A stretch of DNA of 15,734 bases from a virus (lineage: Duplodnaviria > Heunggongvirae > Uroviricota > Caudoviricetes): the IMG/VR virus record IMGVR_UViG_2645727991_000015, positions 1 through 15,734 of that record; one strand, given 5' to 3'. The position numbers and the translations under genes are program-made. Positions 1,453 through 15,246 of the stretch are shown here, piece by piece (the stretch's first letter is position 1; each line of letters opens with the position of its first letter). The notes beneath the pieces are model-generated. The model had not been told where the DNA came from, ran no database searches, and saw only the letters and a list, made by a program, of their open reading frames with translations.

Positions 1453-1647
1453 ATGTCAACGAAGAACAGAACCCGCAGAACAACAACCCGCAACATCCGC
1501 TTTCCTAACCAAATGATTGAACAAATTAACATCGCTCTTGAGCAAAAAGGGTCCGGGAATTTCTCAGCCTGGGTCATTGAAGCCTGCCGTCGGAGACTAA
1601 CGTCAGAAAAGAGAGCATATACATCAATCCAAAGTGATGATGGATGA
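1453..1647 (+). CDS. ylcI: Small basic protein, YlcI-like (DUF3950-type) hypothetical
   Basis: 64-aa ORF MSTKNRTRRTTTRNIRFPNQMIEQINIALEQKGSGNFSAWVIEACRRRL...; same size and position (between bor and the Nu1 homolog) as ylcI in DLP12-type prophages. Identity is by recall only. Confidence 0.5.
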   Translation: MSTKNRTRRTTTRNIRFPNQMIEQINIALEQKGSGNFSAWVIEACRRRLTSEKRAYTSIQSDDG

Positions 1648-2009
1648 ACATCCCGGTTTCTTCCACCATCGCACCGGAAAAGCGACTATGAGGGTAACCC
1701 TGCGTCTGTCAGCACAGTAAAACCCGGTGTGCATCGTTTTTGATTATTCCCGCACACTCACGCAGAAGGAATTCCCCGTCGGGCTACGGTCATGGTTAAT
1801 GCGGGAATACGGCGACGATACAGCGCAGCTAAAAGGGTAATAGACGGATAGACCGGTTTATTTCATTCCACAGGATTCTGAGTGTCCCCAACTTCCTCCA
1901 ATAGTCTGAGCGTACACCTATATAGTTTTAATTTTCATCAATCCATTTAACTATCGTTTAATTGTTGTCACATAGGATTCTGCCGTTTTTAACAATGCAG
2001 GATAATAAG

Positions 2010-2303
2010 ATGAAAAAAATGTTGTTTTCTGCCGCTCTGGCAATGCTTATTACAGGATGTGCTCAACAGACGTTTACTGTTGGAAACAAACCGACAGCAG
2101 TAACACCAAAGGAAACCATCACCCATCACTTCTTCGTTTCGGGAATTGGACAGGAGAAAACTGTTGATGCAGCCAAAATTTGTGGCGGCGCAGAAAATGT
2201 TGTTAAAACAGAAACCCAGCAAACATTCGTAAATGGATTGCTCGGTTTTATTACTTTAGGCATTTATACTCCGCTGGAAGCGCGTGTGTATTGCTCACAA
2301 TAA
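2010..2303 (+). CDS. bor: Bor lipoprotein (serum-resistance protein, Iss family)
   Basis: MKKMLFSAALAMLITGCAQQTFTV... carries a lipoprotein signal with lipobox LITGC and is near-identical to lambda Bor by recall. Start set at the ATG at 2010, preceded by a GGA-containing RBS; the track ORF starts further upstream at 1962. Opposite strand to the lysis genes, as in lambda. Confidence 0.88.
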   Translation: MKKMLFSAALAMLITGCAQQTFTVGNKPTAVTPKETITHHFFVSGIGQEKTVDAAKICGGAENVVKTETQQTFVNGLLGFITLGIYTPLEARVYCSQ

Positions 2304-2334
2304 TTGCATGAGTTGCCCATCGATATGGGCAGCT

Positions 2335-2796
2335 CTATCTGCACTGCTCATTAATATACTTCTGGGTTCCTTCCAGTTGTTTTTGCATAGTGATCAGCCT
2401 CTCTCTGAGGGTGAAATAATCCTGTTCAGCGGTGTCTGCCAGTCGGGGGGAGGCTGCATTATCCACGCCGGAGGCGGTGGTGGCTTCACGCACTGACTGA
2501 CAGACTGCTTTGATGTGCAACCGACGACGACCAGCGGCAACATCATCACGCAGAGCATCATTTTCAGCTTTCGCATCAGCTAACTCCTTCGTGTATTTTG
2601 CATCGAGCGCAGCAACATCACGCTGACGCATCTGCATGTCAGTAATTGCCGCGTTCGCCAGCTTCAGTTCTTTGGCATTTTTGTCGCGCTGGGCTTTATA
2701 GGTAATGGCGTTATCACGGTAATGATTAACAGCCCATGACAGGCAGACGATGATGCAGATAACCAGAGCGGAGATAATCGCGGTTACTCTGCTCAT
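2335..2796 (-). CDS. Rz: Spanin inner-membrane subunit Rz (i-spanin)
   Basis: [41 protein letters not shown]... matches lambda Rz (153 aa) by recall. Start ATG at 2796 overlaps the endolysin stop in an ATGA arrangement; the track ORF extends 4 codons further upstream. Confidence 0.9.
2394..2576 (-). CDS. Rz1: Spanin outer-membrane lipoprotein subunit Rz1 (o-spanin), embedded in the +1 frame of Rz
   Basis: 60-aa [54 protein letters not shown]... has a lipobox (VVGC) and a proline-rich region, lies entirely inside Rz in another frame, and matches lambda Rz1 by recall. Confidence 0.88.
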
Positions 2797-3290
2797 TGTT
2801 TCCCCCACAAACAGACTTCACGCTCAATCTCACGGCGAGTCATCAGTCCTTTCCATTGATTACCGCCAGCGTATGTCCAGCGCCGTAGCTGATCACATGC
2901 GCCTTTGATATCACCCTGGTTTATTTTGCGAAGAAGCGTCGATGTTCTGAAATTGCCAGCACCCACGTTGTAGACGAACGAGTAAAGAGCGCCGCGCGTT
3001 GTTTCCGGTATATCGACTTTGATGTACGGGTTAATTTGTCTGGCGACCGTGGCAAGGTCTTTATTCAGGAGGGCTTTGCATTCTGCTTTGGTATACGTTT
3101 TACCGAGCATGATGTCTTTTCCTGTATGCCCGTGACATACAGTCCATACACCAACAATATCTTTGTATGGTATGTAGCTGACACCTTCCAGACCATCGTT
3201 ACCACTTGGGCCAGTAATTAACACTGATGCTATAGCAATTGCTCCGCCACCAATAGCAGCAGCAACGGCTTTTCGTAATGATGGAGGCAT
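2793..3290 (-). CDS. R: SAR endolysin (T4-lysozyme-like muramidase, phage 21 R type)
   Basis: 165 aa with an N-terminal weakly hydrophobic Gly/Ala-rich signal-anchor-release segment ([20 protein letters not shown]) followed by a lysozyme-like region ([17 protein letters not shown]). Resembles the phage 21 / DLP12 RrrD endolysin by recall, not the lambda transglycosylase R. Confidence 0.85.
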
Positions 3291-3505
3291 TATTCACCTC
3301 TCGCAGCCTTGCGCTTATCTTCTTTAATCTTGAAATAAAGGTTTGTCAGGTACGTCAGCAGGCCAAATACCAGGCTACCCAGCACTCCAATTGCCGCCCA
3401 CTGTGAGGGCGTGACTTTATCTAGCAGCTGTAAAAACCAGTACCCGGCACTACCTGCTGAGGTGCCATAGGCGACACCCGTTGTTAACTTATCCATGGAT
3501 TTCAT
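3290..3505 (-). CDS. S: Class II holin (pinholin, phage 21 S type) with dual-start motif
   Basis: 71 aa [71 protein letters not shown]: two predicted transmembrane segments, charged C-terminus, and Met1/Met4 dual starts (MKSM) typical of holin/antiholin pairs. Matches S21 by recall. One-nucleotide overlap with the endolysin start. Confidence 0.88.
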
Positions 3506-4078
3506 AACCCCACCTCGCAGACAAAGCGGGTGTAAATTGAGGGAATACTACGAAACGTAACAGACTCGGAGTCAGTGAATAACTCAGGTATTGGGTTATC
3601 AGCTAATATCGAGACTCAAAAAATGGAAAAACCCACTCGACGGCGGGTTTAAGCTATGTGACGAAGTAACCACTCTTAACAGCATAACCAATTTTTTACG
3701 TACGTAAACCACTAAATGATATTTGCGAGAATGCTACCGAGTATTGAAAACACCACCACAAATACATAAGCAAATCTCAACAAATAACCAACAAATAATT
3801 CCCAGTGTTATTTTTAGCCGATTTAAATTGAACCTTCAAATCATAGAGCACTTATAAATAACAACCGTTAATATAAATTGGCTAATAGATTTATTTTTAT
3901 TCAGCCAAGAGCCATGAATAGGATTCGATAGAAAAAAGTTCAGATAAAAATAGAGATCTACTTCACAAATCAAACGAGAAACCAAAACTTACATCTTGAA
4001 ATAATCATATTGATTAGATGAATATTTATCGCGCAGTGACATCATTTTTTAATAATAGTTCAAAAAAAAGGGCTCACG

Positions 4079-5176
4079 ATGAAAAAATTAACAGTGGCAA
4101 TTTCTGCTGTAGCTGCATCAGTACTGATGGCGATGTCTGCTCAGGCAGCTGAAATTTATAATAAAGACAGTAACAAGCTGGATCTGTACGGGAAAGTTAA
4201 TGCTAAGCACTACTTCTCCTCTAATGATGCAGATGATGGTGATACTACTTATGCCCGTCTTGGCTTCAAAGGTGAAACCCAAATCAACGATCAACTGACT
4301 GGTTTCGGTCAGTGGGAATATGAATTCAAAGGCAACCGCGCTGAATCTCAAGGTTCCTCCAAAGATAAAACCCGTCTTGCCTTCGCTGGCCTGAAATTCG
4401 GTGACTACGGCTCCATCGATTACGGCCGTAACTACGGTGTAGCATACGACATCGGTGCGTGGACTGACGTTCTGCCAGAATTCGGTGGCGATACCTGGAC
4501 CCAAACAGATGTGTTCATGACTGGTCGCACCACTGGTGTAGCAACCTATCGTAACAACGACTTCTTTGGTCTGGTTGATGGTCTGAACTTTGCTGCTCAG
4601 TACCAAGGCAAAAACGATCGTAGCGATTTCGATAACTACACCGAAGGTAACGGTGATGGCTTCGGTTTCTCTGCTACCTATGAATACGAAGGATTCGGTA
4701 TCGGTGCAACTTATGCGAAATCTGATCGTACCGACACTCAAGTTAATGCAGGGAAAGTTCTTCCTGAAGTATTTGCTTCCGGTAAAAATGCAGAAGTTTG
4801 GGCCGCAGGTCTGAAATATGACGCTAACAACATTTACCTGGCCACTACCTATTCTGAAACCCAGAATATGACTGTATTTGCTGATCACTTCGTTGCTAAT
4901 AAAGCTCAAAACTTCGAAGCTGTTGCACAATATCAGTTCGATTTCGGTCTGCGTCCATCCGTTGCTTACCTGCAATCTAAAGGTAAGGATCTTGGAGTAT
5001 GGGGCGATCAGGACTTAGTCAAATATGTTGATGTAGGTGCAACCTATTACTTCAACAAAAATATGTCTACTTTCGTTGATTACAAAATCAACCTGCTTGA
5101 CAAAAATGACTTCACTAAAGCACTCGGTGTAAGCACTGATGACATCGTTGCTGTAGGTCTGGTTTACCAGTTCTAA
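4079..5176 (+). CDS. nmpC: Outer-membrane general porin, OmpC/NmpC (Lc) family, prophage-encoded moron
   Basis: 365 aa with a signal peptide ([25 protein letters not shown]), Gly/Tyr/Asp-rich beta-strand repeats and the C-terminal ...VGLVYQF ending in Phe, typical of enterobacterial 16-strand porins. Its position between Q and the holin on the opposite strand matches nmpC in DLP12-type prophages. Strong RBS (aaaagggctcacgATG). Confidence 0.88.
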
Positions 5177-5185
5177 TCTGATTAC

Positions 5186-5226
5186 GAAAAAGATATGTTG
5201 CGGGAGGCTTTGCCTCCCCAACATAT
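5186..5226 (-). terminator. Intrinsic terminator-like hairpin on the minus strand, candidate tR' of the late operon
   Basis: Near-perfect inverted repeat atatgttgcgggaggc/ttt/gcctccccaacatat at 5193..5226. On the minus strand the stem is followed by CTTTTT. Lies about 140-180 nt downstream of the Q stop, where a lambdoid tR' would be. Confidence 0.45.
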
Positions 5227-5365
5227 AAGTGGCTCCCTCAAGCCACTTCCTTTAGGAGCACAACCTTGCTTCTAACTATATAAACCTTCTGTTATATATT
5301 ACCCTTTATTTTTGGGGGCGTTGCAACGCCCCATTTTTAATAATTTTTAGTAAACAACTGGCATA
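5227..5365 (-). promoter_or_regulatory. Approximate location of late promoter pR' and Q-utilisation region (inferred from position only)
   Basis: Intergenic segment immediately downstream of Q on the minus strand and upstream of the tR'-like hairpin. Only weak sigma70-like hexamers are visible (e.g. TTGCAA ... GGTAAT on the minus strand); exact promoter not resolved. Confidence 0.3.
5314..5338 (+). terminator. Rho-independent terminator on the plus strand (likely porin gene terminator)
   Basis: Perfect palindrome ggggcgttgcaacgcccc at 5315..5332 followed by ATTTTT on the plus strand; about 140 nt downstream of the porin stop codon. Confidence 0.6.
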
Positions 5366-5749
5366 TTAATTAGAGTTATTAACAACGATATCCATCTCTA
5401 ACCGGATATCTAATGCCATTAACATCCCTTCAATTATGCCCTCAGCCTTCTGTAACCTTTTCCCGATATAACCATCAGAGCAGCAATGCTTACCTGCCAG
5501 TGACATGAATGTCATACCGACTACATAATAATCTACTAATAAATCGTGCAAATCGCTGTTGTTCTTTTTCAGACGGGCCATGCACCCGCAAATAATCATC
5601 GCGTCATCGTCACAACATTGCGGGCGAGATTTTACTTTTGAAGTAATTAATCCCTTAAAACCGGCGGCAATGGACGACCAGGTCACATCTTCATGATTAT
5701 TAGCCGCCCACGCTCCCCAACGCTCAAGAACCATCTGAATATCACGCAT
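5366..5749 (-). CDS. Q: Late-gene antiterminator Q (QuuD / phage 82-type Q family)
   Basis: [35 protein letters not shown]...[16 protein letters not shown]... (127 aa from the ATG at 5749, with a GGAG RBS 8 nt upstream; the track ORF starts at an upstream TTG). Matches DLP12 QuuD by recall; cysteine-rich putative zinc-binding region; located upstream of the lysis cassette. Confidence 0.8.
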
Positions 5750-5834
5750 CAACTTACTCCACAAAAATCAGGCCAGAACGCCAATTACAAGCAAAAATCA
5801 ACAAAACAGTATTAGTTGATTGTTATCTCTGACT

Positions 5835-5975
5835 TCATACTCCTGCTCCTGTCAGGGTTTTGGCGTAATTCTTCAGTATTCGGTAATCGGTCAAAACAGA
5901 ACCGGGGGAACGATATAAGCGCAGACGCCCCCAGCGGTGGCGAAGAAGTTCTGCCATATTAAACTCAAACATCAT
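5835..5975 (-). CDS. ylcG: Small nin-region protein YlcG-like
   Basis: 46-codon [49 protein letters not shown] found by manual translation (below the track size cutoff). Its start overlaps the rusA stop in an ATGA arrangement; same size and position as ylcG in DLP12. Confidence 0.6.
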
Positions 5976-6334
5976 TCATTCCCCATTTCGGTGATGGTCA
6001 GTTCCAGCCTCCCACCTTTGGTAACAGGCATCTTCACAACGCGGTAATCAACGACCTGAGCATCATCCAGCCAGAAACCTGCTTTAGTGAGTGCGTCAAA
6101 AGCGGCTTTTTGCAGATTATCCAGGTCACGGCGACGGAGATCCGGCATGTGGCACTCAATGCGGATTTTCACAGGCATAGCCAGGCCGATATCCAGCATT
6201 GCGTTTTTAATGATTCGGGCGACGTTATCGCGGTATGCCTGCACCTCTGCGCTGACGTGCGTGCGCCCGCGATTATGGCGGTAATAGCGATTATTGCTCG
6301 GAGGCCAGGGTAATGTGATGCTGTAGGTATTCAC
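5972..6334 (-). CDS. rusA: Holliday junction resolvase RusA
   Basis: 120 aa [93 protein letters not shown]... matches RusA by recall. Confidence 0.92.
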
Positions 6335-6621
6335 GCCTTAATAACCCCCTCTTTCAGCCAGATAACCTGTGTTCTCGCCATACCTTCCAGCGCGCATTCT
6401 TTTGCATATGCAGCATCGACAAAATGTGTGCGGCGGTCGATTTCGTCGTGGCAGGCAGAACATGCAATGGTGGCAATCAGGTCTGGCGGTTTGGTACCGG
6501 TGCCGCACAATCCAGTCAGCCGGATATGTGCCAGTACAGACGTTTCAGGGTTGCCATTACATACGCCAGGGATTCTTACCTGGCATTCCCGACCACGCGC
6601 TGCTTTTCTCAAATCAGCCAT
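6331..6621 (-). CDS. ybcO: YbcO-like nin-region protein (putative nuclease, cysteine-rich)
   Basis: [64 protein letters not shown]... (96 aa from the ATG at 6621, which overlaps the ninE stop; the track ORF extends upstream in frame). Matches DLP12 YbcO by recall. Confidence 0.85.
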
Positions 6622-6784
6622 GACTCCTCCTTGCTGCCAGTCGCAACCATTTTTTATCAACCAGGCTGGCGGTATACCCGAGCAGTGTTGGTATTTCGGA
6701 TGGCTTCAGCTCAGGTTTACGCTTACGACGATTTGGTACTCTGTAGATGTGTCCGTTCATGACACGAATAAGCGGTGTAGCCAT
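6614..6784 (-). CDS. ninE: NinE protein
   Basis: Manual translation gives 56 aa [56 protein letters not shown], matching lambda/DLP12 NinE by recall. Start overlaps the ybcN stop (TAATG) and the stop overlaps the ybcO start. Confidence 0.85.
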   Translation of the reverse strand: MATPLIRVMNGHIYRVPNRRKRKPELKPSEIPTLLGYTASLVDKKWLRLAARRSHG

Positions 6785-7239
6785 TACGCCTCCTGCTTGT
6801 CGCGCAGCAGCTGGAACTCGCAGCTCTGCGGAATAGTCAGGTGGCAGCCAATATTCATCGCCCAGGCTTCAACCTTACACAGGAAGACATACATCTCTCC
6901 GGTATCGAGATCGGAGGTATGACGTAATGACTGAATGGTGGTGATTTCACCGGTTACGACATCAACCAGTTCTTTGGTTTCATAACCGAGATAAGTGTGT
7001 TTGAGAGCATCTTTTACCCAAGCTGGAGTGGCGAACGTTTTACCCCTGCTGATGAGGTATTCACTGATTTCGCTGTACCACATGTGGCTGAGTGCATTCT
7101 GGGAAAGACTGCGTCTCTCTCGCCACGGTTTAAGCACCATGCGAAAGCATTTGCCTTCCTCCAGATAAGGCTGGATCTGCTGGCCGATAGCGGTGAAGTT
7201 GCCGCGATGTAATTTGATGCCGTCTTGTGAGAGGTTCAC
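6784..7239 (-). CDS. ybcN: YbcN-like nin-region protein
   Basis: 151 aa (M)[57 protein letters not shown]...; GTG start at 7239 with GGAGG RBS upstream. Matches DLP12 YbcN by recall. Confidence 0.85.
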
Positions 7240-7423
7240 GCTTCACCTCCGCAGAGGTCAAACGCTAGATGCAAAGAATTGCAGGTGCATTTCTGCATCT
7301 GTGAAGGGAGAAGAGAGTTTGGATTGTATGTGCGCATAAACGTCCCCGTTTAGCGCAGAAGTCACCGGAGTTGTTCAGGCTCCGATGACATGATTATGGC
7401 GGGTTGATAACGAAAAATCAAAA

Positions 7424-7525
7424 CTACTTTTTGGTGTTCTGTTCGGCCATTTCGATGTAGCGCGGATCAGATGCGCTGGCTATTCTCTGGCGACCCGTTC
7501 CGCTATCATCGGCATGTTCAAACAT
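7424..7525 (-). CDS. Possible small ORF (33 aa), YlcH-like by position and length
   Basis: Manual translation MFEHADDSGTGRQRIASASDPRYIEMAEQNTKK, preceded by an in-frame TAA. No convincing Shine-Dalgarno sequence. The only support is that DLP12 has a 33-aa ylcH gene just upstream of ybcN. Confidence 0.3.
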   Translation of the reverse strand: MFEHADDSGTGRQRIASASDPRYIEMAEQNTKK

Positions 7526-7575
7526 TTTGTAAGCGTCACCGGAGGTGGTGAGATCAACGTTACATTACTATATTT

Positions 7576-7611
7576 ATAATAAGCCTCAATTCAAACATTG
7601 AGGCTTATTAT
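7576..7611. repeat. Perfect 15-bp inverted repeat / stem-loop (ataataagcctcaat-tcaaac-attgaggcttattat) at the boundary of the AT-rich insert
   Basis: Read directly from the sequence: arms 7576..7590 and 7597..7611 are exact reverse complements, 10 nt downstream of the RloB-like stop codon. No U-tract follows on either strand, so it is not a canonical intrinsic terminator. Confidence 0.7.
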
Positions 7612-7621
7612 AATGAAAAAA

Positions 7622-8257
7622 TTACGGCACAAATGAATCTATAGCATCAAGCAACTCATTCACATTCGTATAACACCCAAGAAGAAATGGTCTATTAGAA
7701 TGAGGAGGAGCTGCATTTAAACTTTGTTTATTTAGTGCCTTCGCTCTTTGTCTGGCATTAGGAATACCAAGTCTAATTTTCTTATACAACGTAGCATCGG
7801 CTTTATTATAATCCTTTATACCCACTGATAGTAAATCTTTTTTCAAAGTAGAGTTTTTCTTTAGATCATCAAAACTTGAGTAAGGTGTATTCTTAAATGC
7901 AAAGTGTTGTAAAATCCACAATTCAAAACAAACATTTGACAACGCAATATTAATATTGTTTGCATGGGCTAAATCCCATGCTTCATGGTGTAATGTGTGT
8001 GGGTATTTTGTGACAGCCTCTCTATCATATACAACCCAAAATTCATCATCATCCGATGTATCACCACTTTCCTTGTGTTTAATTGCAGCCTTTACTAAGG
8101 CTATTGGTGTGTTATATTTTATATCAGGGATATGTATAACTTTTGCTTTCTCACTAGCAAATTCATCGATATAACCCTGCAAGTACATAGGTTCTGTTTT
8201 AGACCCTTCGCAAAAAATATGCATTCGTTTCTCTAATTTTCTCACGTTTTTTGCCAT
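7622..8257 (-). CDS. RloB-like protein (AbiLii-like; putative effector/partner of the upstream ATPase)
   Basis: 211 aa with N-terminal motif ...HIFCEGSKTEPMYLQGYI..., which I recognise as the conserved CEGxxTEPxY signature of the RloB family (recall, not searched). Strong RBS AAGGTGA; separated by 6 nt from the upstream ATPase gene; AT-rich codon usage unlike the flanking phage genes. Confidence 0.65.
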   Translation of the reverse strand: MAKNVRKLEKRMHIFCEGSKTEPMYLQGYIDEFASEKAKVIHIPDIKYNTPIALVKAAIKHKESGDTSDDDEFWVVYDREAVTKYPHTLHHEAWDLAHANNINIALSNVCFELWILQHFAFKNTPYSSFDDLKKNSTLKKDLLSVGIKDYNKADATLYKKIRLGIPNARQRAKALNKQSLNAAPPHSNRPFLLGCYTNVNELLDAIDSFVP

Positions 8258-8263
8258 GATCTA

Positions 8264-9604
8264 TCACCTTAAATCTTCTGGAATATCATCGATGTTACCA
8301 AATACTGTTAAATCAGTATCTTCAGGTTCACCACCTGTTACCTCAATGATAAAATCCTTTATTTTCATATAGTTAATTGATGGGACGCCACCAAAACGCC
8401 CTTCATCATACCACTTGTTAAAAGGTGAGTTAGCCTTAACCTTTTCTTTATCAAACTCATCTAAACTATAAACTTCGGTTACACCTTTTTTCTTTTCAGT
8501 AAACCAAATCTGATCTCTTCTCATATTTTCTGATTTCATCAACTCAATGTTATGAGTTGTAAATATGAGCTGAGAGCCTACTTTATTAACCTCACTATCG
8601 TTAAACAGTCTGATTAAAAGTGCAGCCAAATGTGGATGCATGCTGTGGTCTATTTCATCGATAATTAACACTCGATTTATTAAAAGACCAGAAATTAGGG
8701 CAGGTGTTAATTCAAATAACCTACGAGTTCCTGCTGACTCATTTTCAATATCTATATCAGCACATTCTCCACCCTCCATGTCATGCTCAAATTTAAAGCT
8801 AAATCGATTTTCAGCCAAAATTCTTCGTTTCATATCTTCCGGCATTTCATCAGGTAGCTTAATATCTAGTTCTTTATTTTCGACAATCCTTAGTTGGTTT
8901 ATACCCGTATCAACCAATGATAAGAAGTTACCGGAAAAACGAATAAGCATGTCTCTAAATTTCTCATCCTCAAGATGAAGAGCATTAAAACTTGATTCCA
9001 TTCCAATAGGACAAATTAACTGCGAAAAGTACTCATATACTTCCTTAGCAATCTCTGGAGCCTCAGCGACAGTGCCGATCTTTGATAGATAAGAGTTATT
9101 TTTAGAAAATGGAATTTTCTTTACTCCACCTTTGAATTGCGCCCCAAATTTAATATTCTCCCAACCATTATTCACACGATAGAACAAATTCGATGGCTGC
9201 TTGGAGTAATAACAATCTAAACTCTCCAATATAATTTCTTTTTGAAGATAATGTATTTTATATTTAAATTTCAAATCATTGATCACAAAGTCAATTTCAA
9301 ACTTTACTGGCTTTGAGATTGTTTTTTGACAAAGAGAATATGGTTCATAACAAGGGATATCCTCGCCATCTTTCAACGAAAAGCTATCCTCAACAAGATA
9401 ATTTAATGCAGAAAACACCTTTAGAAGGTTTGACTTCCCTGAAGCATTAGGACCATAAATTCCAACGGTACGTACAACCCGCTCATTGCTTTTGGGAAGA
9501 ACAAGCAAATTATCGCTTAAGTGGTTACTTGTTGAACTACGCAGATCAAAGTTAACCTCTTCTTTGATCGACCTAAAATTCTCAACTTTTAAGGAAATTA
9601 TCAT
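8264..9604 (-). CDS. ABC-type / AAA_21-like ATPase (AbiLi-like; putative anti-phage abortive-infection ATPase)
   Basis: 446 aa with Walker A GPNASGKSN, Walker B VLIIDEIDHSMHP and an H-loop-like LIFTTHN. AT-rich; forms a tight two-gene operon with the RloB-like gene. Confidence 0.75.
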   Translation of the reverse strand: MIISLKVENFRSIKEEVNFDLRSSTSNHLSDNLLVLPKSNERVVRTVGIYGPNASGKSNLLKVFSALNYLVEDSFSLKDGEDIPCYEPYSLCQKTISKPVKFEIDFVINDLKFKYKIHYLQKEIILESLDCYYSKQPSNLFYRVNNGWENIKFGAQFKGGVKKIPFSKNNSYLSKIGTVAEAPEIAKEVYEYFSQLICPIGMESSFNALHLEDEKFRDMLIRFSGNFLSLVDTGINQLRIVENKELDIKLPDEMPEDMKRRILAENRFSFKFEHDMEGGECADIDIENESAGTRRLFELTPALISGLLINRVLIIDEIDHSMHPHLAALLIRLFNDSEVNKVGSQLIFTTHNIELMKSENMRRDQIWFTEKKKGVTEVYSLDEFDKEKVKANSPFNKWYDEGRFGGVPSINYMKIKDFIIEVTGGEPEDTDLTVFGNIDDIPEDLR

Positions 9605-9960
9605 AAAACGATCCTCTAAAACGTACTTTTACAGTAAAAAAATGACAAAAAATGCCTAATCACGAGATTGTAATCTATAATAATATACTTTTATACAACT
9701 ATTTCTTGGTTTTGTACCCTTATAAGCACAAGAAGAATGCAATCATCATATTGAGTTACTACAAGAGCTGGACTGCCCCCTTCCGGAAGACGATCTTGCC
9801 CGATAGTTTCTTCCCTCCACTCCCACGGGTCTACGCCAGTTGGGCATCCTGAAAACTCCCGACAATCTCGATGGTTTCCAGCGCTGCTATGGGGTCGTTC
9901 ATGATAATTATATTAAGTTTGACCAAAAACTGACTTCACCTTCAGAAGGAGCGCAGTTAA

Positions 9961-10161
9961 TCAAATCGATAATTTCTTCAGGTGTCTCTTTAACGTCGAT
10001 ATACTCGCCAGAGGATATTTCAGAGTTGTAATACCATGCAGAGTCATGATAACGATATGCCCTACGGCAACAAACACAGGCTCGAAGACTGTTTCAGGTT
10101 CCCAGCCATATTTCCCCTGACGCTCAATCGTCGCTTGCTGGCTCAATTTGATGATTTTCAT
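9961..10161 (-). CDS. Hypothetical small protein, start coupled to the ren stop (possibly a truncated remnant of a nin gene)
   Basis: 66-aa ORF MKIIKLSQQATIERQGKYGWEPETVFEPVFVAVGHIVIMTLHG... whose ATG overlaps the ren stop in an ATGA arrangement. No recognisable family; lies at the edge of the AT-rich insert. Confidence 0.35.
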   Translation of the reverse strand: MKIIKLSQQATIERQGKYGWEPETVFEPVFVAVGHIVIMTLHGITTLKYPLASISTLKRHLKKLSI

Positions 10162-10451
10162 GTCTTAGCTCTCCCATATACCGCCAATACCCGTTTCATC
10201 GCGGCACTCTGGCGACACTCCTTAAAAATCAGATTCGTGCTCACCTTTCCTTCCCGTTCTTCTCTGGTAGCGAACCGGTAATACACCGTTCGCCAGACCT
10301 TACCATCAACGACCAGGATTCCTGCCCGCGCCATTTTAGCCGCAGCCTGATTTATGCTGGTTACGGTTGCGCCTGTTACCGCGGCAACGTCCTGCGCACA
10401 GAAGTTCTTATGAGTCCCCAGGTAATGAATAATTGCCTCTTTGCCCGTCAT
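10158..10451 (-). CDS. ren: Ren (Rex-exclusion resistance protein)
   Basis: 97 aa MTGKEAIIHYLGTHKNFCAQDVAAVTGATVTSINQAAAKMARAGILVVDGKVWRTVYYRFATREEREGK... matches lambda Ren by recall; immediately downstream of P. Confidence 0.88.
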   Translation of the reverse strand: MTGKEAIIHYLGTHKNFCAQDVAAVTGATVTSINQAAAKMARAGILVVDGKVWRTVYYRFATREEREGKVSTNLIFKECRQSAAMKRVLAVYGRAKT

Positions 10452-11149
10452 ACACTTACTCCTTTCAGCCCAAACTTAGCTTTGATTTCTGCGATCTTCG
10501 CCAGAGCCTGTGCACGATTTAGAGGTCTACCGCCCATGACAGGAAGTTGTTTTACTGGTTCAGGTATAGCCTCACCACGGTTAATTCGTGCGGCCATACA
10601 GGACAGTTCATCGGCAGCCTTGCGCCGTAATTCCGCGTCAGTCAACGCATTGGCCCGCATGTTCTGATACAGGTTGGTAACCAGCCAGTAGTGCGCGTTT
10701 GATTTCCACGGATAAGACTCTGCATCCGGATACAGGCCACGCTTCCGGCAATACTCGTAAACCATATCAACCAGCTCGCTGACGTTTGGCAGCCCGGCGT
10801 TAACAGATGCTTCTTCCCGGCACCAGGCGACAAACTGCCCGGGTGATGGCAGGAATGGTCGATTCTGCCGACGGGCTACGCGCATTCCAGCGTTAACCTG
10901 TTCCATTGTGGTGATCCCGTTTTCCCGGAAAGCCAGAACCCACTGGCGGCGGATTTCGTTCAGTTCATTCTGGTCACGGTTAGCCAGGCTCGCCGGGAAA
11001 GTTGCCAGTAACTGGCTGAACACACCGTTGATGATCTGCGCTACCTGCTGTACCTGCGGCTTTTCGTCGTACTGTTCCGGCATATTGTTGGCGATCCGGC
11101 GCATCTGCTCACGGTCAAAGTTAACCATCTGTGCGGCGATGTTTTTCAT
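10448..11149 (-). CDS. P: Replication protein P (DnaB helicase loader)
   Basis: 233 aa MKNIAAQMVNFDREQMRRIANNMPEQYDEKPQVQQVAQIINGVFSQLLATFPASLANRDQNE... is near-identical to lambda P by recall; overlaps the O stop. Confidence 0.93.
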   Translation of the reverse strand: MKNIAAQMVNFDREQMRRIANNMPEQYDEKPQVQQVAQIINGVFSQLLATFPASLANRDQNELNEIRRQWVLAFRENGITTMEQVNAGMRVARRQNRPFLPSPGQFVAWCREEASVNAGLPNVSELVDMVYEYCRKRGLYPDAESYPWKSNAHYWLVTNLYQNMRANALTDAELRRKAADELSCMAARINRGEAIPEPVKQLPVMGGRPLNRAQALAKIAEIKAKFGLKGVSV

Positions 11150-12075
11150 AAATCCACCCCGTAAATCCAGTCAGTGTTCGTCAGGTCGAGTTTTGGTTTG
11201 CCGGCTGTCACGCCAGCCTGTTGCTTGTTTCGGTTGATTTCGAGCTGGGTCCACTTGTCGCGGAGTTTGGCCGGACTCAGCACGTTACCGGACCAGAAGT
11301 TGTCCTGGCATGCCCAGCGGAACAGCACGCACATGTCGCGGTGGTTACGTCCGTCACGTTCACGCATCAGGCGGATATCGTTAGCCCACCCTGCAAAATT
11401 CGGTTTTCTGGCTGATGGCGCGATGGTCTTCACCATGTCAAACATCCACTCTGCGGCGGTCAGGTCTTCTGCTGTCCCCCACTTGCTGCCACTCTGAATT
11501 GCAGCATCCGGTTTCACCACAGGAAGGTCGTTTTCTGGCTGGTCAGAGGATTCGCCAGAATTCTCGGACGAAAAAGGTTTTATATTGTCTTTTGTTAGTT
11601 TGTCTTTTGTGTTTACCTGATTCGGGTAAACGCCTTTACCTGATTTGGGTAAACTTTTCTTACCTGATTCAGGTAAATTTACCTCTTTCAGGTAAACTTT
11701 ATTTTTCTTACCTGATTCGGGTAATGTTGACCATTCACTGACCACATTATTAATGCCGATATTTCGCCCGCTCTGAATAAGAATCCCACGCTTTACCAGA
11801 ACGCTTTTTGCAGCAGAACACTTGTGCGGCAATATCCCGGTCAATTCGGAAAGTTGCTCGTTGCTCACCCAATCCAGTCTTTTATTAAAGCCATATGTTT
11901 TGCGCATGACAGCCAGGAAGACCAGAAGCTGGTGCTGTGTTAATCCGGCCAGCATCACAGCTTCCAGCAACTCATTTGCAATGCGCGTATAACCATCATC
12001 GAGATCTGCCACGCGCGGCTCCTTTTGTGCCGCATCCGGCACTGGAAAATTGAATATCTCAGCAGTGTTTGCCAT
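11146..12075 (-). CDS. O: Replication initiator O (lambda-like C-terminal domain, non-lambda N-terminal iteron-binding domain)
   Basis: From the ATG at 12075 (RBS GGGAG): MANTAEIFNFPVPDAAQKEPRVADLDDGYTRIANELLEAV... aligns with lambda O MTNTAKILNF...VADLDDGY..., and the C-terminal half (SSENSGESSDQPENDL...WIYGVDL) is near-identical to lambda O by recall. An alternative in-frame start at 12165 (the track ORF) overlaps the upstream gene stop in an ATGA arrangement. Confidence 0.88.
   Translation of the reverse strand: MANTAEIFNFPVPDAAQKEPRVADLDDGYTRIANELLEAVMLAGLTQHQLLVFLAVMRKTYGFNKRLDWVSNEQLSELTGILPHKCSAAKSVLVKRGILIQSGRNIGINNVVSEWSTLPESGKKNKVYLKEVNLPESGKKSLPKSGKGVYPNQVNTKDKLTKDNIKPFSSENSGESSDQPENDLPVVKPDAAIQSGSKWGTAEDLTAAEWMFDMVKTIAPSARKPNFAGWANDIRLMRERDGRNHRDMCVLFRWACQDNFWSGNVLSPAKLRDKWTQLEINRNKQQAGVTAGKPKLDLTNTDWIYGVDL
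11575..11724. repeat. ori: Replication origin inside O: AT-rich tract (11575..11612) plus five 17-bp iterons TTACCTGATTCGGGTAA (11613..11629, 11636..11652, 11660..11676, 11679..11695, 11708..11724)
   Basis: Five direct repeats with the same 17-mer core and inverted ends (TTACC...GGTAA) read directly from the sequence, spaced 19-29 bp start to start, with an AT-rich segment on the transcription-downstream side. Same organisation as lambda ori but a different iteron sequence. Confidence 0.8.
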
Positions 12076-12161
12076 AATTACTCCCGCAATGAGTGTGTTA
12101 CGATTTGCACCTGAAAGTCGGTTCTGTTCCAGCAGACCGGCTTTCGCCATTTCTGAACCTG

Positions 12162-12707
12162 TCATATTGCCCCCAGCATGGTGGTGACCATCGCCATCAG
12201 TGGACCAGCCAAATCCGGGTCCACACGAAACATCGACACAATGCCTTCACTCATCTCCTTCAGTTTCTGGTGGCGTGGTGCGTTGAGAATGACAGCCTGT
12301 TTTGCCTCACTGAGTTCCTTTTCCATTTCAGCCAGCCGAGCCATGAAGCTATCCTGCTCAACCAGGTGGCCGCGATATTTCAGCGGTAGTACTGCCAGAA
12401 TTGCTGGAGTCAGTTCACGCACGTTATTTCGGTATTTTTCAGAATCGAATTTGTTATCGAGAAAGCGGAACAGCTTCTGGCGTGCACGACTGACATCATC
12501 AGGAAAATCGATAGTGCCGCCGCCCTGTGCTCGATACTAATTCACAATGAGTGCGGCAACGACATCCTGATTATCTACAGCCGACCAGGCGCGGATGGCA
12601 TCACGGATTTTTTCGTGGCCTGGCACCTGTTTTATTTGAGAACGATTTATCACCGCAGTCGGGATAAATCCGCTAGTCTGTTGGTATGTAAGTGGTTGCA
12701 TAGTCAT
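12162..12707 (-). pseudogene. cII-position gene (YdaT-like by recall) interrupted by a single in-frame TAG at 12537..12539
   Basis: A 56-codon ORF (MTMQPLTYQQTSGFIPTAVINRSQIKQVPGHEKIRDAIRAWSAVDNQDVVAALIVN, stop TAG) and the track ORF 12162..12422 are in the same frame; the only stop between them is that TAG. Read-through would give about 181 aa (...VN*YRAQGGGTIDFPDD...LTPAILAVLPLKYRGHL...). Confidence 0.55.
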
Positions 12708-12959: not shown

Positions 12960-13069
12960 TATCAATTCCTACTGGTATTGCAATGAATGAATAATAGCAA
13001 TGCGTATTAATCCAAGCAATAGCAAAACGTGTTTTGACCATCAATACGCAAGCGTATAAATTAAAACTT
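12960..13069. promoter_or_regulatory. Divergent immunity control region (putative OR operators with pR and pRM)
   Basis: 110-bp AT-rich intergenic region between the divergent cro-like and cI-like genes. Contains repeated ATAGCAAT-type motifs (12993..13009, 13016..13028) and an imperfect palindrome atacgcaagcgtat (13044..13057). No Shine-Dalgarno sequence precedes the cI ATG, consistent with a leaderless pRM transcript as in lambda. Confidence 0.55.
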
Positions 13070-13762
13070 ATGAAAAAAGAAACTCTTGCTGATCGCTTAA
13101 ACCTAGCGATGGAACAATCTGGAATGTCTCAAGGCGCTCTTGCAAAGGCGTCTGGCGTAGCTCAACCCACAATCTGGAGACTGACAAGCGGCAACGCGCG
13201 CGGCTCAACAAAAATTGTTGAAATAGCTAATGCATTGGGTGTTCGAACAGAATGGCTCTCATCAGGCATAGGCCCGATGAGAAATGACGGTCAACAATCA
13301 GGGAAGCCTGCTGTCAGCCATTCCAAATACTTCAAAATTGACGTTCTTGATATAGAAGTCAGTGCCGGGCCGGGTGTAATCAACCGTGAGTTTGTAGAAG
13401 TTCTACGCTCGGTTGAGTACTCGTTTGACGATGCTCGTCACATGTTCGATGGCAGGAAGGCGGAAAATATCCGCATCATTAACGTGCGTGGTGACAGCAT
13501 GTCAGGAACGATCGAACCAGGTGATCTGCTGTTCGTTGATATCACGGTTAAATCTTTCGACGGTGATGGTATCTATGCGTTTCTGTACGACGACACAGCC
13601 CATGTAAAGCGCCTGCAAATGATGAAAGATAAGCTACTGGTTATCTCTGATAACAAGAGCTACTCACCGTGGGACCCGATCGAGAAAGACGAGATGAACC
13701 GGGTGTTCATCTTCGGTAAGGTTATTGGGAGCATGCCGCAGACGTACAGGAAGCATGGTTAA
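13070..13762 (+). CDS. cI: CI-like prophage repressor (N-terminal HTH, C-terminal S24 LexA-like autopeptidase domain)
   Basis: From the ATG at 13070: MKKETLADRLNLAMEQSGMSQGALAKASGVAQPTIWRLTSGN... (HTH), with C-terminal ...INVRGDSMSGTIEPGDLLFVD...HVKRL... (Ser and Lys residues of the S24 catalytic dyad in the usual spacing). The track ORF starts at an upstream TTG (13034). Confidence 0.85.
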   Translation: MKKETLADRLNLAMEQSGMSQGALAKASGVAQPTIWRLTSGNARGSTKIVEIANALGVRTEWLSSGIGPMRNDGQQSGKPAVSHSKYFKIDVLDIEVSAGPGVINREFVEVLRSVEYSFDDARHMFDGRKAENIRIINVRGDSMSGTIEPGDLLFVDITVKSFDGDGIYAFLYDDTAHVKRLQMMKDKLLVISDNKSYSPWDPIEKDEMNRVFIFGKVIGSMPQTYRKHG

Positions 13763-13843: not shown

Positions 13844-14317
13844 ATGGAAAAGCCTAGCTTCCCACCTCTTCTTACAGCAGGATTTCATGATATGGATAGT
13901 GATGGCATCAAGTCTCTTTGTGTCGACACCTTCCCAAAATCCGTTAGAAGAAGTATGCTATACTGTAATTTTATACAGCTTATTGAGCAATTTAAACTTG
14001 TTAATCAGCAGTGTCTATGTTTCTCTGAAGTGTGGATCGATGGTTCATTCACTACAGAGAAACCTGAACCTGATGACATAGATATACTCGTGGTCGTCGA
14101 TTATTTGGCCCTAAACTCTTTGCCAAACACGCTGATGCCATTGGTTAGCTCATTGTTAAATAGAGATTTTATTAAAGAAAACTACAGCATTGACGTTCTT
14201 TTGCTGCCTGAAAATCATCCAGAAATCGATTATAGTGAAAGGCGAAGTTACTGGAGAGGGTGGTTTGGTTTTGATCGGAAGGAGAATCCTAAAGGCCTCG
14301 TGAGGGTAATGTTATGA
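13844..14317 (+). CDS. Hypothetical protein with nucleotidyltransferase-like motif, first gene of the rex-position operon
   Basis: 157 aa; contains WIDGSFTTEKPEPDDIDILVVVD, resembling the GS...DxD signature of minimal (Pol-beta superfamily) nucleotidyltransferases. Directly downstream of cI with no intervening terminator; stop overlaps the next start (ATGA). Confidence 0.5.
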   Translation: MEKPSFPPLLTAGFHDMDSDGIKSLCVDTFPKSVRRSMLYCNFIQLIEQFKLVNQQCLCFSEVWIDGSFTTEKPEPDDIDILVVVDYLALNSLPNTLMPLVSSLLNRDFIKENYSIDVLLLPENHPEIDYSERRSYWRGWFGFDRKENPKGLVRVML

Positions 14318-15246
14318 GCGAAGAAAAAACATTCAACTCCCTCAAGGAGCGAATTGCGTTCATTCAACGCGATGTGGATCTGCTTGCTCAAAATAAGGGG
14401 AGATCATTTGCTGATGACATTATATTTAGATCACTTGACTCCCATCTGAGCGATCTCCGAGAGAGACAACGTGCAATCGATAACCAACATCCTTTACGTG
14501 ATTTCATGGAGTTGAGATTAAAAGGTGTTTTGGTCGATTTCGGGTCTATTCCGTTAGATATTCTATCTGTAATTTCAGGTAATCTCGCATCCCTTGTACA
14601 GAAAGCAGTTTACCGACTTGGATCTGGGAAAGATTCTAGTCGTGTGCCGATTGATGTTAAAAAATCATTAGACATGAGATTGGCAGACTTGCGTCCAGGT
14701 TCGACGAAGTTAGGTGTTACTTTTTCTACTGGTTCTTGCGAGCTCATCGAAACAGTATCCAGTCATGCTGTTAAGGAGATTTTTGCACTACTCTCATCCA
14801 TTGATGAAGAAACATTCACGGCTAAAATTGCCGAAATTGGTTCGCAATCAACAGCTAACCTAAAAAACATCATAAATGAGTGCGAAAAATATAGTCTTAA
14901 CTTTGATCTTACTTGGATTGGACCTTTAAGTGATGGTACCAGACAAGTGTCAATTTCTTCAGAAGATATAAAAAAACTGAATGCTCGCTTAGCTTTAACG
15001 AAGGTCATTCAGCTACCGGATGAGCATATATCAGGCGAACTTGCTATTTTATCCATGTACGGGAAATTGGAGATTGCAAGCGAGCTTGGAAAAATAAAGG
15101 CTTCTTATCCGATTGATATGTTAGGAGAAATTCAAAGTAAATATAAAGTTGGTGAACGAATATCGCTCGTAGTAAGCGTTTCTGAGATTCACAATGAAAG
15201 ATTAGGAACATCACGACGTAACTACATGGTTAAAAAAATCGAATAG
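14314..15246 (+). CDS. Hypothetical protein (310 aa), second gene of the rex-position operon
   Basis: Long ORF translationally coupled to the upstream gene; followed by a strong intrinsic terminator. No family recognised from sequence alone. Confidence 0.5.
   Translation: MSEEKTFNSLKERIAFIQRDVDLLAQNKGRSFADDIIFRSLDSHLSDLRERQRAIDNQHPLRDFMELRLKGVLVDFGSIPLDILSVISGNLASLVQKAVYRLGSGKDSSRVPIDVKKSLDMRLADLRPGSTKLGVTFSTGSCELIETVSSHAVKEIFALLSSIDEETFTAKIAEIGSQSTANLKNIINECEKYSLNFDLTWIGPLSDGTRQVSISSEDIKKLNARLALTKVIQLPDEHISGELAILSMYGKLEIASELGKIKASYPIDMLGEIQSKYKVGERISLVVSVSEIHNERLGTSRRNYMVKKIE

Follow-up and report, generated by a model that had tools for sequence, protein, structure and literature searches.

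The DNA analyzed here, a window of 15,734 nucleotides (nt) from the Caudoviricetes record IMGVR_UViG_2645727991_000015 of IMG/VR, is a DLP12-type lambdoid prophage of E. coli. It likely carries a complete two-gene abortive-infection system of the AbiL type as a moron in the variable slot between ren and ybcN. The larger gene encodes an intact ABC ATPase with all catalytic motifs, and the smaller one encodes a protein of the RloB family. A sequence-only reading of the window had described an AT-rich block of about 2.2 kb with an ATPase gene followed 6 nt later by a gene for a 211-amino acid (aa) RloB-like protein, and had proposed an AbiL-like module. Both open reading frames (ORFs) are indeed intact and on the minus strand, they are separated by exactly 6 nt (8258-8263), and the motifs named in that reading (GPNASGKSN, LIIDEIDH, TTHN, and CEGxxTEPxY) can all be read in the translations. 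Profile matches, folds, and the foreign origin of the block support the AbiL-like interpretation. The parts of the module are as follows.

8264-9604, minus strand: abiLi-like gene for a 446-aa ABC (Rad50/SMC-type) ATPase, identified by Pfam, PADLOC, and fold
7622-8257, minus strand: abiLii-like gene for a 211-aa RloB-family Toprim (OLD-like) predicted nuclease, identified by Pfam, PADLOC, and fold
E17 (nt 8207-8209), E22, D78-R79-E80 (nt 8018-8026), S107-N108, E112 (nt 7922-7924), H118, and Y150/K152, minus strand: putative active site of the predicted nuclease
7574-7613, minus strand: terminator-like or transcript-stabilizing hairpin at the 3′ end of the cassette, identified by inverted-repeat search and RNA folding
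9605-9760, minus strand: very AT-rich non-coding leader 5′ of abiLi and presumed location of the cassette's own promoter, with a guanine-plus-cytosine (GC) content of 0.276

The first protein scored above the Pfam thresholds for AAA_21 (4.7e-28, 99.6 bits against a cutoff of 27) and AAA_15 (3.2e-9, 37.3 bits against a cutoff of 32.1). Its top PADLOC model is AbiLi PDLC02335 (1.8e-83, 278 bits), and models of AriA are distant secondary matches (1.6e-28 and 9.2e-13). An NCBIfam search returned only sub-threshold ABC matches for the ATPase. The Walker A motif GPNASGKSN spans residues 51-59, with G51-S58 encoded at nt 9431-9454. The ATPase signature is E289-S290-x-G292-T293, the Walker B motif LIIDEIDH supplies D316-E317 (nt 8654-8659), and the H-loop TTHN supplies H351 (nt 8552-8554). 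Across an alignment of 39 diverse ATPase homologs, no variation is seen at G51...K57-S58, E289-S290-x-G292, D316-E317, or H351. The abiLi ATG is preceded, at a distance of 8 nt, by the Shine-Dalgarno sequence GAGGA. The AlphaFold2 model of the protein has a predicted local distance difference test score (pLDDT) of 83.9, and Foldseek matched it to Rad50 at 2.7e-12 and also to PtuA, OLD, and GajA. As modeled, the ATPase is a Rad50/SMC-type ABC head resembling PtuA, OLD, and GajA.

The second protein matches Pfam RloB (PF13707) at 6e-31, with 108.6 bits against a cutoff of 31.5 and coverage of profile positions 3-194 of 195, and its sole PADLOC match is AbiLii PDLC02337 (8.7e-21). The two PADLOC classifications thus come out as the sequence-only reading had expected, with AbiLi and AbiLii as the best models. 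The protein has an OLD-family Toprim nuclease fold, with an alpha/beta core, a glutamate after strand 1, and an acidic pair after strand 3. The CEGSKTEPMY motif occupies residues 16-25. Across a 39-sequence alignment of RloB homologs the invariant positions are C16-E17-G18-x-K20-T21-E22-P23, D78-R79-E80, C110-F111-E112, H118, and Y150-x-K152, and S107-N108 is kept in at least 90% of the homologs. Because abiLii starts 6 nt after the abiLi stop codon, the two genes are probably translationally coupled. The ratio of nonsynonymous to synonymous substitution rates (dN/dS) against the Klebsiella orthologs is 0.078 for the ATPase (94% protein identity) and about 0.07 for the nuclease, so both genes are under strong purifying selection.

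The sequence features by which PADLOC and DefenseFinder recognize AbiL were all found, namely both profiles, adjacency, order, co-orientation, and the catalytic motifs. Deposited E. coli sequences named "AAA family ATPase" and "RloB family protein" match the two proteins at 100% identity, and an identical ATPase appears in 930 index blocks of public assemblies. The system is already catalogued, and the pair is an ordinary example of it. The ATPase and RloB genes always co-occur and are conserved as a pair, with the ATPase gene preceding the RloB gene in all homologous loci examined; for at least nine ATPase/RloB homolog pairs the longest contigs were equally long. The pair occupies the nin slot of lambdoid prophages in E. 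coli and Klebsiella, and it is also found in Klebsiella and Stenotrophomonas phages and on ColE1-type mobilizable plasmids of 3.5-5.2 kb. In Yersinia it is a tail-fiber-proximal moron and, separately, lies in the neighborhood of a Panacea toxin-antitoxin gene.

On small ColE1-type plasmids of E. coli and Klebsiella, an AbiL-type ATPase and RloB pair makes up most of the non-backbone cargo. Such a pair is located at 1635-3603 of the K. pneumoniae plasmid pUUH239.1 and on about 40 similar plasmids. The RloB protein of the pUUH239.1-type plasmids is 41% identical to that of the window, and the plasmid genes overlap by 8 nt.

The founding AbiL comes from a plasmid of Lactococcus lactis, pND861, whereas the window member is carried by a lambdoid prophage in a Gram-negative host. 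The pND861 system likewise consists of an ABC ATPase (~410-460 aa) followed by a small RloB/Toprim protein (~190-210 aa), and lactococcal AbiL is likewise found on mobile elements. The prototype confers phage resistance and acts after phage transcription (PMC13064643). A pair from a lactococcal prophage, annotated as abortive phage resistance proteins, matches the same PADLOC models (4.4e-76 and 4.7e-18) and conserves E17, E22, S107-N108, E112, W114, and H118. The window pair is about 24-27% identical to this prophage pair. The two differ in the second Toprim motif, which is D-R-E in the window protein and D-Y-D in the lactococcal protein. AbiL has been grouped with PARIS and MADS as split ABC plus Toprim systems (PMC11464382). 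PARIS (AriA/AriB, class 4 OLD-like) also pairs an ABC ATPase sensor with a separate Toprim effector and is often borne on prophages or satellites. It probably works in an analogous way, with a sequestered nuclease that is freed when infection is sensed (PMC11464382). In the OLD nucleases (P2 Old, and the class 1/2 enzymes of T. scotoductus and B. pseudomallei) and in GajA, the ATPase and Toprim domains are fused, unlike in the window pair. Gabija was rejected as an identity, as it needs a fused GajA and a UvrD-like helicase, GajB; here the domains are split, and no helicase gene is present in the slot or the window. A published test of an enterobacterial AbiL was not found in the literature.

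The block itself is foreign in composition to its surroundings, as the sequence-only reading had supposed. The GC content of 7562-9760 is 0.336, against 0.511 in the nin genes on one side (5972-7421), 0.512 in the replication genes on the other (10172-12165), and 0.448 for the whole window. A sliding-window profile falls from about 0.50 to 0.31-0.37 between approximately 7500 and 9750. Flanks like those of the window are present in 3,829 of 5,426 complete E. coli genomes, while the AT-rich block is present in two, both from bovine isolates. No DNA match to the cassette was found in sequenced phages, which contain only distant protein homologs (27-31% identity). A truncated gene at the junction also points to a foreign origin. 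The same reading had the block interrupting an otherwise conserved ren to ybcN region. This needs to be qualified, as the region that differs among relatives is wider (7422-10171) and the cassette is one allele of a variable slot. Homology to relatives with other cargo stops at 7421/7422 and restarts at 10171/10176. Every relative examined carries other cargo at this place, so the slot is multi-allelic and the cassette is not an insertion into continuous conserved sequence. In these relatives the slot holds either ea22-like small genes or emrE-ybcK, the latter as in the DLP12 of K-12. The early-right operon runs on the minus strand, and the slot and its surroundings are organized as follows.

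11146-12165, minus strand: O
10448-11149, minus strand: P
10158-10451, minus strand: ren
7422-10171, no strand assigned: whole variable cargo slot between ren and the ylcH-like ORF/ybcN
9961-10161, minus strand: 66-aa hypothetical ORF that overlaps the ren stop codon
9761-10171, minus strand: normal-GC right part of the slot, consisting of the 66-aa ORF and a 200-nt segment (9761-9960)
7424-7561, minus strand: remnant of a gene like that for the theta subunit of DNA polymerase III (holE), identified by DNA and peptide matches
7236-7337, minus strand: ylcH-like 33-aa ORF
6784-7239, minus strand: ybcN
after ybcN in operon order, minus strand: ninE, ybcO, and then rusA (5972-6334)

The truncated theta-like gene is the clearest scar of the original insertion. 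A truncated ORF had been suspected at the edge of the block opposite the inverted repeat; such an ORF does exist, but it lies at the left edge, beside the hairpin. The remnant (7424-7561) has normal GC, and its DNA is 75-82% identical to that of a theta gene from a lambdoid prophage. It has lost about 18 codons from its N-terminal end, carries a frameshift, and is internally deleted; the peptide matches to WP_025269997 are NVDLTTSGDAYK, the frameshifted LNMPMIAERVARE, and ASDPRYIEMAEQNTKK*. Its broken 5′ end is the exact start of the AT-rich DNA. Intact theta copies are found at the equivalent nin position in Klebsiella-type lambdoid prophages (e.g., locus L019, 5884-6147). The AT-rich cassette (7562 to about 9760) would thus have inserted into an older nin segment, at the cost of the 5′ end of the theta-like gene.

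A continuous 2.65-kb unit (7468-10119) is about 90% identical to lambdoid prophages of Klebsiella, while the Klebsiella flanking genes are only 65-80% identical or unrelated. An identical module is also found in E. coli prophages that differ in their immunity, Q, and lysis modules. The shared unit and the varied prophage backgrounds point to spread by lambdoid mosaic recombination after the insertion, with the unit probably moving among E. coli and Klebsiella prophages. The right part of the slot had no match in Pfam, NCBIfam, or PADLOC. It travels with the cassette, but it is not kept as a gene in the Klebsiella copies. The segment 9761-9960 contains no recognizable gene remnant and has no homolog outside cassette-bearing loci; in the right part, only the 66-aa ORF has homologs elsewhere. 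We rejected this ORF as a third component of the system, as the unit shared with Klebsiella begins inside it (10119) and it is absent from other AbiL contexts. Flanking repeats are short and at chance level, so that transposon or integron ends were rejected, and no transposase or integrase gene lies in the slot within the window.

The second complete genome with the cassette, E. coli NADC1036, carries an extra 1.4 kb (4482-5852 of that locus) between ybcN and the AbiL unit. It encodes a P22AR C-terminal-domain protein and a small ORF and is accompanied by a duplicate of window segment 7269-7380, which indicates that the slot has been rearranged more than once.

As in known moron and defense hotspots (P2/P4, lambda rexAB, and DLP12 emrE-ybcK), a cassette of foreign composition sits between conserved phage genes. 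Alternative cargo is likewise found at the same place, and the window cassette has its own terminator-like hairpin. The ren-ybcN slot might be a general defense hotspot of DLP12-type prophages, comparable to those of P2/P4. We found no formal description of it as such in the literature, and AbiL and RloB go unmentioned in Vassallo 2022 and Rousset 2022.

The hairpin begins 9 nt 3′ of the abiLii stop codon. The perfect inverted repeat that had been placed at the boundary of the insert is real, but its arms are 17-mers (7574-7590 and 7597-7613, with a 6-nt loop) and not 15 nt long. The folding energy of its RNA is -22.6 kcal/mol (z = -6.1), a stability that none of 200 shuffled sequences equaled. 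It was rejected as a canonical intrinsic terminator. It lacks a canonical U-tract, and a terminator scan based on T-runs did not call it; we therefore term it only terminator-like. At the other end of the cassette, the leader folds no better than shuffled sequences (z = -1.1). Across the slot, Rfam returned no family at E up to 1, and ARAGORN found no tRNA.

Several points weigh against reading the pair as a working AbiL system. For this module, we infer defense activity, the trigger, the target, and the formation of a complex. A PDB sequence search with both proteins found no solved relatives, so a comparison of folds was needed instead. The second Toprim motif in the RloB clade is D-R-E (DxE), not DxD, although this is a conservative change. 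The mechanistic equivalence of AbiL and PARIS is still unknown according to a 2026 review (PMC13064643). The AbiL genes are co-oriented with the repressed early-right operon, and a scan for the sigma-70 consensus on the minus strand of 9605-9960 (356 nt) gave no match. Over the whole region the scan gave as many promoter matches as expected from shuffled sequence, and manual reading upstream of abiLi gave only weak promoter candidates. No recognizable promoter that would drive expression in the lysogen was found.

Among the other explanations for the pair, we considered an addiction (toxin-antitoxin) module that mainly stabilizes the prophage or the cassette. The Toprim protein would be the toxin and the ATPase the antitoxin, and the pair would have no anti-phage role. 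Pairs of AAA and TOPRIM_OLD proteins do act as toxin-antitoxin systems in neutralization assays (PMC10440598), much of the cargo of the 3.5-5.2 kb mobilizable plasmids, where stabilization makes sense, consists of homologous pairs, and one Yersinia homolog adjoins a toxin-antitoxin gene of the Panacea type. The founding AbiL, however, owes its definition to phage resistance (Deng 1999, cited in PMC13064643), and the module here sits in a typical prophage moron slot of a prophage with a second candidate defense pair. Toxin-antitoxin and abortive-infection functions are also compatible, and PARIS shows both. We regard a purely addictive role as unlikely. That the pair is itself a PARIS system, which would respond to anti-restriction proteins such as Ocr and cut tRNA-Lys, is very improbable. 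The split ABC ATPase and Toprim architecture is the same and the AriA models do match the ATPase, but at 1.6e-28 and 9.2e-13 against 1.8e-83 for AbiLi; the effector does not belong to the AriB/DUF4435 family, and PARIS fails on the best profiles of both proteins and on fold similarity.

A nin function that benefits the phage, i.e., an ATPase-nuclease pair in lambdoid replication or recombination like NinB/YbcN, RusA, or theta, could also be read from the accessory genes for recombination and replication that surround the pair, from its co-orientation with the early-right operon, and from the resemblance of the ATPase fold to Rad50/SbcC. Such a role is hard to reconcile with a pair of foreign composition that is present in two of 5,426 complete genomes when its flanks are present in about 3,800, and that recurs on small plasmids and at unrelated prophage positions. 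The coiled coil of Rad50 and an Mre11-like partner are absent, and the best profile matches are to defense families, so we give this role very little credence. The Pfam name RloB derives from genes inside Campylobacter hsd loci (PMC10440598, PMC13064643), and the ATPase has a weak NCBIfam match to a restriction-system-associated AAA ATPase (E 1.9e-4). Both could speak for a pair of the RloA/RloB type that serves as an accessory to a type I restriction-modification locus. This match is far under threshold (20 bits against a cutoff of 300), and no hsdR, hsdM, or hsdS gene is present in the window or in eight E. coli contexts. We rejected RloAB, which is extremely unlikely to be the correct identity.

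For an AbiL-type system, a mechanism can be proposed by analogy with PARIS, P2 Old, Gabija, and AAA-Toprim toxin-antitoxin pairs. AAA proteins neutralize TOPRIM_OLD toxins in in vivo toxicity assays (PMC10440598), and tRNase activity is known for AriB and P2 Old (PMC12409363; 10.64898/2026.07.10.737580). In the lysogen, an oligomer of the ATPase would bind the Toprim nuclease and hold it inactive, the ATPase thus serving both to sense infection and as the antitoxin. When another phage infects, a product or consequence of that infection would then shift the conformation or nucleotide state of the ATPase, and the nuclease would be freed or activated to cut nucleic acid. By the same analogies the nuclease would most likely cut RNA, either tRNA, on which AriB and P2 Old act, or another RNA; DNA, as for GajA, would be less likely. 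Cleavage would halt translation or replication and abort the infection before progeny are released. We also considered whether the lambdoid-borne enterobacterial AbiL clade differs from PARIS and P2 Old in what triggers it or what it cuts. The features singled out in this clade are the invariant D-R-E in place of the Toprim DxD and the clade-invariant H118, Y150, and K152, and we hold such a difference to be rather doubtful. Under this reading, the clade could possibly sense competing lambdoid phages through one of their replication or recombination proteins, which would fit the fixed position of the pair among replication and recombination genes.

Three other regions of the prophage are of note. 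A second AT-rich gene pair (GC 0.36-0.41) lies directly 3′ of a cI-like S24 repressor gene (13034-13762), in the position of lambda rexAB. The two genes, 13844-14317 and 14314-15246, are on the plus strand and overlap by 4 nt. The first encodes a 157-aa protein that matches Pfam DUF6932 (4e-26) and PADLOC PDC-M63A (7e-43), and the second a 310-aa protein that matches PADLOC PDC-M63B (4e-42). PDC-M63 is a candidate defense system only; the pair also adjoins the repressor gene in two related loci. A ydaT-like gene (12162-12707, minus strand), in the cII position 5′ of O, is interrupted by an in-frame stop after codon 56, whereas the close relatives L001 and L005 have it intact (179 aa). Because of this stop, the prophage may be partly defective. 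The region 3600-4050 is very AT-rich (GC 0.29-0.33) and lies upstream of a 365-aa ORF (4079-5176, plus strand). This ORF is the classic DLP12 nmpC moron; its counterpart in L001, the closest relative, is annotated as an OmpC/NmpC-type porin and lies between the Q antiterminator and the lysis genes.

The AbiL pair is not a new kind of defense system, defense morons borne on prophages are a well-established theme, and the practical value of the finding is modest. The prophage gives its host at least one recognized defense system, in addition to the candidate PDC-M63 pair beside the repressor. This bears on the phage susceptibility of bovine-associated E. coli and on the transfer of defense genes between E. 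coli and Klebsiella on lambdoid phages. A compact AbiL of E. coli in a lambda-like background is also a convenient model for a family whose mechanism is unsolved 27 years after its discovery (PMC13064643). Should the lambdoid-borne clade prove to have a trigger or target of its own, the AbiL family would thereby gain its first mechanistic model, and this in a host amenable to genetics.

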